DNA from: Octopus vulgaris
Taxonomy: Eukaryota
Assembly (NCBI GenBank): GCA_951406725.2
Contig: OX597826.1
Location: 31,744,001 to 31,808,000, forward strand
DNA length: 64,000 nt
Direction: 5' to 3'
Position 1 is the stretch's first letter, and every line of letters starts with the position of its first letter. A model generated the notes under the pieces. That model did not search any database. It was given only the letters and a program-made list of their open reading frames with translations, and was not told where the DNA came from. This document shows positions 38,401 to 41,400 of the stretch, in pieces. The position numbers and the translations under genes are program-made.

Positions 38401-41400
38401 AGGTATATAAATATACCTACCTACCTACCTACCTACCTACCTACATACTACATACATACATACATACATACATACATACATACATACATACATACAAGCG
38501 TTTCACTTAGAGATATGTTTGAAATATTTTCTGATATTTTAATGCTAATGCAAAAGTTGCAATACAGGTGTAAATAACATAAATTTGGTCACATGATTTG
38601 TAAGATATTCTTTTACAGGTTGGTCGCCAGTATGTTATATTATGGAGTGACTCTTCATTCCGTGGACATGGCTGGAAACCGCTATGTAAACTTCCTGCTG
38701 TTGGCATTCGTGGAATTTCCTTCTCATTTAACTTCTTTCTGCTTGTTTAAACGTTTTGACCACCGGAGGCCCATTTGTTTCTTTCTGATGTTCAGTGGAT
38801 TAAATTGCATCGTGTCAAATTTTGTAACCAAAGGTAATGTACATCGCATATTTTATATTTTATATACATTTGAAACCAGTATCATATCTTATCAAAATAA
38901 GCTTAAAATGCAAGTATATTAAATCGTAAAGACTATTGCAGAGAAAGTTTCGTATCGAATCACAGAATGTATTCACTATAATGTTACTAGATTAAAATAT
39001 ACTACGTGATTGCATACATTTCCTGCGCAATCACCAACATACAATCAGTAACGCAGTGATGTTTTATCTTCTGTCAGTTCATTGGTCAACTGTTGTATCT
39101 TTATTATTTTTATTAAGCAATAATTATTCATTTGATTTAATAACATTATTCATATGCTGAATGATTTAAACGTTAAATTTTGGACAATGGGACGAACAAA
39201 ATGATAACTTTGTAAAATCATGATCCATCATTTTTTTTCGTCCTAAAAATCTTGAACTGAATATTTCTTTCCGGTAATACTGCAAAATATCCTCAAAATA
39301 TTCGTCTTTAATTAAACTAATATTTAATTGATTTGTATTATATAAGGTATGAACATTTGAAACCCTTCGATCTTTATAGCCAACAATTATATTTGTTTTA
39401 CAAATTTTGGTTAGGTGCCAAAAGACACATAATAATATTAGATAATGCGACTCAAATGTGGAACCACGGATTCCAGAATGAGTAGTAAACGGTGTATGTT
39501 ATAAATGATAGAGATACGATGTGCATCCAGAAGGTCCGAGACATTTTCAGGAGAGGAAGTTATAACTGTCCAAAATTACTGCACTTTTAGTAATCATTAT
39601 TATTATACACCTAATAAGCTAACTTGCCGAATTTTATTCGAAATTAAAGGGGACGGCCATAACAGTAGTTTGAAAAGCCCCTGCTAAAAACTGCTAGTCA
39701 CAATTTCAGTCTGTTAATTGACAAAGATGGGCATCAGAATCGTCCCTCACGTAGTCTACAGCCGAGATATTTCTTCCTGTGACTTTTGGTAGTTGCTCAA
39801 ACTGAGGAAGAACCTCAGGAACAGCCGTTTTGAAGACATTGAATGGAAGGTTGTTGCAAGGGTCCTGGACACCTTCCATTTGGATGTCTCCCATTGGGTC
39901 TTCAGAAAGTGGCAGAAGTAATACAAGAGATACATCGAAGTCAGAGGATGTTACTTTGATGGAGATTAGCGGTTTGTACTTTGAGATTAATAAATGTCTC
40001 ACCTAAAAAGTCTCAAAACCTCTGGAATGCACCTTGTATATTGCATTATCTAAGCTTCTATTTTATTGTATTTAAGGTTCATTCTGGTTTCCTCTGATCC
40101 TGGTCGTTCTCGGAAAGTTTGGAATCGCCTCGGCATATGGTTCAATTTATCTCTTATCAGCAGAATTATTTCCAACAGTTGTGAGGTAAATGTTGTTGAA
40201 ATTTTTTTGTGGAAAAATGAGAAAAGATAATGTTTCAGAATTGTTGTGTGTCTTTGCAAACCCACTGTATCTCTTAACCTCTCACGACACTGAAATGTAA
40301 CGGCGTGTTTTGTCATCTCACTCTTTTTAGAAACTCAATATGGTGCCGTGTTTTACCTGTTTTACCAGGAATTTAACTTTTCACCATCTCTCTCTTCTTT
40401 GTTTCTCTCTCTCTCCTCTTTGTTTCTCTCTCTCTCCCTTTCTCTCTCTCTCTCTATCTATCGCTCTATCTATCTATCTATCTATCTATCTATCTATCTA
40501 TCTATCTATCTATCTATCTATCTATCTATCTATCTATCTATCTATACATACATACATACATACATACATACATACATACATACATATATATATATATACA
40601 TATATATATATATATATATATATATATACTACATGTGTGGAAAATTCTGTCTTCGGGTGGGTTTGTTTGTGGGTTTGTTAGTTAAATCCTAGTACTTCAT
40701 TTTAGCGACTTTTATGAAACTTGACACTTGAGTGGAACTCACGTCTGGAAACCTAGTGACAAACGCCCCTGGAAGTGGTCCTTATATCTATTACTTATAA
40801 GTGATATATTTTATTTTAAAGATTTTAAATAATCCATTCGGGATCCCAAATATAGCCAAGGGAAATGACCCATACATCTTCCTAAATTATTTGGTATAAA
40901 TCAAATTGAGTATGCTTATTTCTTAGTACTTGAACTGTGATTTTCGTAATTTATCCACTAAATCGCTTAAACAAGTAAATAGTATTTTCCTAAACAATAG
41001 CTCCACTTATTAGTTAGTGACTTATTCACGAATATACCAACATTAGCGCCTCTGAGGCTACTATTTTCTGAGAATGCACAAAAGCCCTTTTCAGAGTTAT
41101 TTACTTTGAATTATTATTGTCTCATATCTCATTAGCCTGTTATTACGTAACATGCTTCACGAATTTAGTATACATACCTTATTAACATTTCATCCTAAGT
41201 TCTATATACTCTGCGAATGTATTAAGTCCCTTTTCGGGGCTACTTTATTTGAATTCTTACTATCGGGTAACTAATTTCATGTTATTACATAACTGACTTC
41301 ACAACTTGGGTATTCATAACTTATTGGGAATTCCTAGGAACAAGATCCTGTGTAAGACAGTTAGGTATTCTCCGTAAATGCACAATAACCGTTTTACTTG

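Follow-up and report, generated by a model that had tools for sequence, protein, structure and literature searches.

A divergent patch at the start of exon 7 in two inverted SLC22-family duplicates of Octopus vulgaris

Genes in the window and their family

The window, by which we mean the whole 64,000-nucleotide stretch of Octopus vulgaris contig OX597826.1 that was analysed, contains three SLC22-family genes, here called A, B and C. Gene B (23365..42252, + strand) encodes an SLC22-family carrier in nine coding exons. Its spliced frame is identical to the O. vulgaris protein CAI9731802.1 at 538/538 residues, and it differs from the O. sinensis protein XP_029644276.1 at residues 351 and 498 and by an early end. 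In exon 9 of B a run of 7 A at 42197-42203 (+), against 6 in C, shifts the frame so that the protein ends at residue 538; because B is intact in O. sinensis, this run is likely a homopolymer error that has passed into the public annotation. Two extra exons occur in public models of B, one at 26371-26448 (+), used as an alternative after exon 1 (XP_036364175.1), and one at 47022-47078 (+), an alternative last exon (CAI9731801.1).

Gene C is an inverted duplicate of B and stands tail to tail with it. Its exons 6-9 (63730-63461, 62829-62615, 61362-61254 and 58129-57916, all on the - strand within 57916..64000) form an open frame of 268 codons. Exons 1-5 of C lie outside the window, and O. sinensis models stand in for them in the whole-protein counts. 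The inverted B/C arms align over B coordinates 37297-40386 and 41627-42791; the middle of intron 8 (40400-41600 in B, ~1.2 kb, and 58550-61060 in C, 2.5 kb) is without B/C alignment, and the unaligned part in C contains an element that is also present at 13975-14430 (77%). The spacer between the two genes holds a lone exon-5 remnant with an in-frame stop (55731-55889, -), ~51% like paralogue P0050. Gene A (728-6442, -), represented by exons 1-5, is a more distant paralogue located head to head with B. Its exons 3-5 match the O. sinensis protein P0015 at 96-98% and its exon 1 matches P0012 at 17/17 residues, and it may therefore be a mosaic, or its first exon may be of a common type. In each of three Octopus species ~15 paralogues of 60-70% identity are annotated on one chromosome.

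Membership in the SLC22 family and the MFS superfamily is indicated by PF00083 and PF07690 (Sugar_tr/MFS_1), precomputed for P0002, and by whole-length matches to 25 PDB sequences at E<=1e-30, all of them SLC22, with OCT1 at E 1e-63. The AlphaFold model (P0018) has helices where they are expected for a twelve-helix fold; its mean pLDDT of 52 means low confidence and makes it too poor for pocket geometry. B and C resemble human OCT1/OCT2/OCT3, OCTN2, OAT1 and URAT1 in their whole-length similarity. Unlike OCT1, both copies have Arg495 where OCT1 has the helix-11 Asp, so that the acidic helix-11 residue of the OCT subgroup is missing, and Lys460 occupies the position of the Arg in the OCT1 YER motif; we take these two OCT1 residues to be D474 and R439. 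Given the Arg at the helix-11 site in both copies, a cation cargo should not be assumed, and for B and C the name 'organic cation transporter' is a label with a putative cargo behind it. OAT and URAT1 also have Arg at this site, according to excerpts of PMC9521027.

The divergent patch and its flanks

Exon 7 is 215 nt long with AG/GT ends in both copies (38619-38833, +, in B; 62829-62615, -, in C). The divergence between B and C peaks in its codons 1-40, which correspond to 38619..38739 (+) and residues 376-415 in B, with the differing bases at 38622-38738, and to 62709..62829 (-) in C. In this patch 21/121 bases differ (a 17% peak), and amino acids are replaced at codons 1, 4, 6, 8, 10, 11, 13, 18, 23, 24 and 36-40. 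An earlier note, made from the letters of this stretch, had claimed 15 replacements and 5-6 silent changes in the first 40 codons of the exon and identity of the last 31 residues, and the counts agree: there are 15 amino-acid differences and 5.5 silent ones in the patch, and codons 41-71 contain no replacements and one silent base (38811). Scaled by sites, this amounts to 5.5 silent differences on 27.5 sites (pS 0.200) and 15.5 replacement differences on 92.5 sites (pN 0.168). When the 220 mismatches of the arms were shuffled over their 4073 aligned columns, 0/2000 shuffles yielded a 120-column window with 21. At the protein level 15/40 residues differ in the patch and 35/512 elsewhere (Fisher p=2e-7, for a window picked post hoc), and exon 6 differs at 11/89 residues. 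A uniform divergence along the arms, the outcome that the earlier note had set against its proposal, is contradicted by the window counts, with their 21/121 peak against a 5.4% background.

That background is itself uneven. The introns had been described as differing only at scattered positions, and this misses their mosaic nature: non-coding divergence is 177/3265 or 5.4% on average, the final 104 bases of intron 6 have 0%, 38200-38414 has 11.2%, and the best non-coding 120-base window has 17 differences. A two-state fit to the 3265 non-coding columns assigns 1.3% divergence to 31% of the sequence, in runs of ~100 bases, and 7.3% to the remainder. This fit beats the one-state model by 10.7 log-likelihood units, a third state gains <1 unit, and simpler permutation tests of the mosaic give p 0.02-0.04. 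The patch exceeds the 7.3% high state (p=0.0002).

The raised silent rate proposed earlier is weakly supported. Four of the 5.5 silent differences lie within 9 bases (38698..38706, +) in codons 27-29, and outside these codons there are only 1.5 silent changes on ~24 sites. The significance of the silent rate of 0.20 depends on the baseline and ranges over p 0.003-0.12: it is p 0.003-0.014 against the non-coding mean of 0.054, p 0.014-0.05 against the 7.3% state, and p 0.07-0.12 against the most diverged intron stretch (38200-38414). As the silent excess rests on a 9-bp cluster, the peak consists mainly of replacements on C and is not plainly an older stretch.

Likely gene conversion between the arms

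The patch is bordered on both sides by long identical runs. On the left there are 109 identical bp (38513..38621, +; partner 62827-62935), likely a recent conversion tract, and on the right two runs of 72 bp (38739..38883, +), split by the silent change at 38811 and likely representing a conversion tract as well. Two microsatellites of B, at 38415-38498 in intron 6 and at 37466-37528 in intron 5, are missing from C; the 109-bp run begins 15 bases after the former, which may for this reason mark a conversion-tract boundary.

For the comparison of species the O. bimaculoides orthologue of B (P0026) served as outgroup, and O. sinensis and O. bimaculoides were represented by proteins only. The split between O. 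vulgaris and O. sinensis is placed at 2.5 million years and that from O. bimaculoides at ~34 in excerpts of PMC10700109. B and C share 14 derived residues, compared with 4 shared by B and the outgroup and 3 by C and the outgroup, and therefore the duplication probably postdates the split from O. bimaculoides. At residues 328 and 332, the O. sinensis form of C has the outgroup state and the O. vulgaris form is B-like; both residues are included in a 73-bp identical run in exon 6 (37738..37810, +; partner 63613-63541), and a B-to-C conversion after the species split is the likely cause. Residue 351 of B is C-like in O. vulgaris only, and residue 498 of B is C-like in O. sinensis only. For some of these three species-specific swaps, shared polymorphism or polishing could give the same picture. 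Short-tract gene conversion between B and C is likely real.

The patch looks unconverted, since only 1/6 of the differences between B and the outgroup found there are also present in C, against 33/46 elsewhere (p=0.015). Within it orthologues are closer than paralogues: O. vulgaris and O. sinensis agree at 36/36 residues of C, counted over the part of the patch present in the O. sinensis protein, and at 40/40 residues of B. Four public runs (X5, X10, X12 and X15, each of a different organism; X12 and X15 are RNA by guess) were aligned on 61200-64000 at 80% likeness, and their contigs are used to show presence, not absence. In X5 both copy-specific forms of intron 6 occur at 62961-63286, where the copies are ~9% divergent (30 differences, 22 gap columns), and the paralogues are not closer than the orthologues over that stretch; the immediate flanks of the patch are identical within the window. 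Because this intron stretch persists equally, the persistence of the patch across species is no sign of selection.

Residues of the patch and the predicted substrate pocket

The patch covers the outer half of helix 7, the following loop and the greater part of helix 8; the low-confidence model places these helices at residues 362-390 and 396-421. Codon k of the exon corresponds to OCT1 residue 354+k and, by start offset, to URAT1 residue 357+k. The earlier note had placed the changes around OCT1 Y361 and E386. Alignment upholds this mapping (codon 7 for Y361, codon 32 for E386), and the patch does span helices 7-8 at these positions; the two equivalents themselves, which mark the OCT subgroup, are identical in B and C. 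Also kept in both copies are the equivalents of G363, the helix-7 Gly, and P388, the helix-8 Pro.

The changes of C map to OCT1 S358, Q362, I365, D378 and A390 and to URAT1 F365 and K393. Codon 8, which is Tyr in B and Cys in C, corresponds to both OCT1 Q362 and URAT1 F365. In OCT1, Q362 is in contact with both substrate and inhibitor, and metformin transport is reduced in Q362A (excerpts of PMC10940649); in URAT1, F365 is the urate-stacking residue (excerpts of PMC11962085). Codon 11, Thr in B and Asn in C, corresponds to OCT1 I365, which is part of the outer gate (excerpts of PMC10567722). Codon 36, His in B and Leu in C, corresponds to URAT1 K393, which binds urate together with F365 (excerpts of PMC11962085 and PMC9521027) and whose site is occupied by a basic residue in anion carriers and by Ala in OCTs (PMC9521027, likewise in excerpt). 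The excerpts of the OCT1 papers PMC10567722 and PMC10940649 contain no mention of S358, D378, A390 or F355.

Across 20 other segments of the cluster, variability is highest at codon 36 (3.0 bits; segments without the downstream motif were excluded from the column counts). In P0005-P0016, exon 7 codons 29, 30, 36, 38 and 44 are hypervariable (2.3-3.0 bits) with invariant neighbours, and this hypervariability of helix 8 beside the E386 equivalent suggests a cluster-wide diversification of the pocket. Most of the residues of C occur among the 159 distant relatives aligned (of 160), the rare ones being Cys at codon 8 (1/159) and Ile at codon 24 (4/159). Changes of C fall on a cavity-facing stripe in 5/9 cases (p=0.03), which has little weight, as the stripe was drawn post hoc from recall and helical spacing.

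Change on copy C: selection or decay

Polarised by the outgroup, the patch differences comprise 10 changes on C only, 4 on B only and 1 on both; the consensus of 14 other paralogues gives 9 C-derived, 3 B-derived and 3 open. By either polarisation C gains 9-11 replacements in 40 codons and B gains 3-5, and B itself shows no raised rate in the patch when measured against the outgroup (6/40 vs 46/512, p=0.25). The divergence thus appears to have arisen mostly through changes on copy C. Taking half of the most diverged intron level as the neutral share for C (5.5-7%), its 9-11 replacements on 92 sites are above expectation at p 0.01-0.2. This bias towards C was missed in the earlier note, as were the acceleration of C over the whole protein (32 vs 15, p=0.019, with O. 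sinensis models for exons 1-5) and the possible splice damage at intron 6.

The explanation that we place first, with a probability that comes near to even and stays below it, is that the island persists through selection for different substrate-pocket residues in B and C, with most of the change on C. The setting is a pair of tail-to-tail duplicates that are ~95% alike in non-coding DNA and have a 17% peak at exon 7 codons 1-40. The duplication would probably have taken place after the O. bimaculoides split and been followed by patchy two-way conversion in tracts of ~100 bases, for which the support is good. By alignment, the replacements of C fall on the positions matching the OCT1 and URAT1 residues named above, with the equivalents of Y361, G363, E386 and P388 staying in place. 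The predicted pocket of B, with Tyr at the 362 site and His at the K393 site, would suffer from C sequence, and the altered pocket of C, with Cys and Leu, would be lost to B sequence; as each would be harmed by the sequence of the other, conversions over the patch would be purged both ways. A divergence of 17% would also make conversion start less often and so lock the island in. That C acts as a full-length carrier with a different cargo is a putative step of this mechanism.

The earlier note had likewise considered the patch to be shielded by selection from gene conversion. An unconverted patch in converting arms fits that proposal; selection as its cause is not established, because the silent excess is thin, the intron stretch persists equally and C is possibly decaying. 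The last point leads to an explanation to which we give a considerable chance, though one well below even: C would be relaxed or decaying, near-neutral changes would have accumulated everywhere in it, conversion from B would have erased most of them, and the patch would owe its escape to chance, with no other aid than one-way selection against C-to-B conversion and the slowing of further conversion by divergence. A chance escape would be easy, since only ~31% of the non-coding DNA has been recently homogenised, and intron windows also reach 17/120. On the one hand, there are several signs that agree with decay. The acceleration of C concerns the whole protein, pN is near pS in the patch, dN/dS between B and C is ~0.7 over exons 6-9, and C alters invariant residues beyond the patch too (E3V, F300S). 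The donor of C intron 6 (63455..63460, -) has a one-base insertion, by which it loses the +5 G that B has, and is likely weaker; as a sign of decay this is weak, because four of the eight donors of B are also without +5 G. Intron 6 of C further contains a C-only cryptic exon (63126..63255, -) with a new AG at 63257-63256 and with 42 codons followed by a stop. The O. sinensis model XP_036364448.1 ends in this exon, and exons 7-9 form a separate 174-residue model; the C-only cryptic acceptor, the stop-ended exon and the donor insertion thus lead to the annotation of O. sinensis C as two genes.

The public sequences agree with such damage as well. In X12 the C-type contig (record 12) departs from the genome precisely at the acceptor of exon 7, as spliced RNA would, and runs on for 60 letters that were not placed on exon 6. 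At 63496 and 63503 in exon 6, X12 has coverage by a B-type contig only, and no C-type exon 6 letters were seen in this run, an absence that small-bubble removal could cause. From this one contig we infer a putative exon 5-to-7 join that would bypass exon 6, keep the frame and lose 90 residues, and C may be splice-compromised at intron 6. The searches gave no full-length C protein, and neither their matches nor the 16 listed clusters include an O. vulgaris C protein; a search for short proteins resembling exon 7 of C was negative, and a profile-free search of representatives gave nothing closer than 66%.

On the other hand, the frame of C has survived where decay would be expected to break it: exons 6-9 are open over their 268 codons, and a neutral copy with 21-43 substitutions would be expected to have 3-6 breaks (P of none 0.054-0.003); this number of breaks is an upper estimate, since homopolymer runs are among the intron indels. 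No stop occurs in the O. sinensis models of C for exons 1-6 and 7-9. Moreover, the patch lies well above the unconverted non-coding state, and changes of C at sites that are at least 85% conserved in the cluster are concentrated in it (5/23 vs 4/243 elsewhere, p=0.0003). The equivalents of Y361 and E386, the helix-7 Gly and the helix-8 Pro are retained, the wider family accommodates most of the residues of C, and in one likely-RNA run exon 7 of C appears spliced.

Selection for different pockets can also be put in a stronger form, which we regard as unlikely. The first half of exon 7 would then be a specificity cassette of the SLC22 cluster, and C would be a working carrier whose cargo has been switched and whose patch has been guarded by selection for millions of years. 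On this reading the switch would have come about by His to Leu at the URAT1 K393 site and Tyr to Cys at the F365/Q362 site, which would make the pair an opsin-like case among transporters.

Other paralogues and the assembly as sources of the patch

The earlier note had offered import from a third paralogue as an alternative; for the patch as a whole this was rejected. The closest relative of the C patch is the O. bimaculoides orthologue of B (28/40 residues), followed by XP_029643935.1 (26) and B itself (25), and C8, N11, T18 and I24 are found in none of 20 other distinct cluster segments. It is improbable, to a lesser degree, that parts of the C patch came from other paralogues of the cluster by micro-conversion. 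Such events would account for the 9-bp silent cluster and for the five adjacent replacements at codons 36-40; the changes are clustered, ~15 potential donors of 60-70% identity are located on one chromosome, the O. sinensis paralogue XP_036364451.1 has F1, G4 and I10 in common with C, and XP_029643935.1 shares the AAY at the end of helix 8. The nearest sequence is nevertheless of the B lineage, the four residues named above occur in no paralogue among the 20 segments, within the patch C retains residues of the B lineage at codons 3 and 28-30, and a paralogue contig of X10 (record 6) has the letter of B at 9 of the patch sites listed.

Both versions of the patch are also present in the public runs. 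The C-type contig of X12 has 0 other letters in 150 and the B-type contig has 21, with depths of 4.1 and 5.6 over exon 7; the C-type contig of X5 has 1 other letter in 221, and a second contig carries B letters at all 17 patch sites listed. Only the B-type patch was seen in X15, and no C-type patch was seen in X10, which is a patchy run. No matching run is on record as RNA; eight that are RNA by guess contain 0.10-0.14 of the words searched, compared with 0.041 expected from B mRNA alone and 0.172 from C mRNA, and six of the eight were left out of the evidence. Exon 9 of B contains a likely homopolymer error, and polishing can homogenise near-identical copies, by which some identical runs might be faked, though not the patch; an assembly chimera, which the earlier note had named as a refuting outcome, or a polishing artefact has a negligible probability and is refuted for the patch by the O. 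sinensis proteins of both types (XP_029644276.1 for B, XP_036364182.1 for C) and by the X12 and X5 contigs.

One contig of X10 (record 5, depth 4.85) combines the two types. Over 62492-63172 it has 28 other letters and no gaps, and B and C differ there at 54 bases and 75 gap columns; its intron 6 is C-like, and it is B-like at all 17 patch sites listed. Either the patch has undergone B-to-C conversion there, or the assembler passed from one copy to the other through the 109-bp run in patchy data. A real join would mean that conversion has reached the patch in the organism of X10, and this would speak against strict shielding.

Relation to known systems and significance

A divergence peak between converting duplicates is a known phenomenon, and the B/C pair is a new case of it. 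The closest precedent is exon 5 of the human red and green opsins, a divergence peak under conversion for which the model of Teshima and Innan is reviewed in PMC3924837. Like B and C, the opsins are close duplicates, ~24 kb apart, with conversion in the flanks and a local peak over functionally placed residues, and within the peak orthologues are closer than paralogues. They differ in that their flanking introns are homogenised within species and their key residues are proven. In B and C, by contrast, part of intron 6 retains copy-specific forms in different species, the duplicates are in inverted orientation, most of the change lies on a single copy, and the function and full-length expression of C are putative. 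A second comparison is offered by GOT1p1 and GOT1p2 of Tigriopus californicus, described in excerpts of PMC3728101 as invertebrate paralogues in which highly divergent islands stand out while conversion goes on. There, too, the divergent region is occasionally converted, and there is one pair in which conversion failed to keep both copies functional. GOT1 is an enzyme pair with population data, whereas B and C are a transporter pair known from few genomes and contigs. In the literature on the octopus SLC22 expansion and on O. vulgaris organic cation transporters, searched by titles and the starts of abstracts with subscription journals outside the coverage, the cluster was not found described.

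Divergence peaks between converting duplicates are a known pointer to selected sites. If C is decaying, the B/C pair would be a caution that such a peak can arise from relaxed constraint combined with patchy conversion. If the first half of exon 7 is indeed a specificity cassette, it would provide a natural two-allele test of charge selectivity in SLC22 carriers. If C works, the pair would be a ready test of substrate switching in the family by way of a short swappable stretch, at sites that set the choice of cargo in OCT1 and URAT1, and would give a first functional handle on the transporter cluster of octopus.
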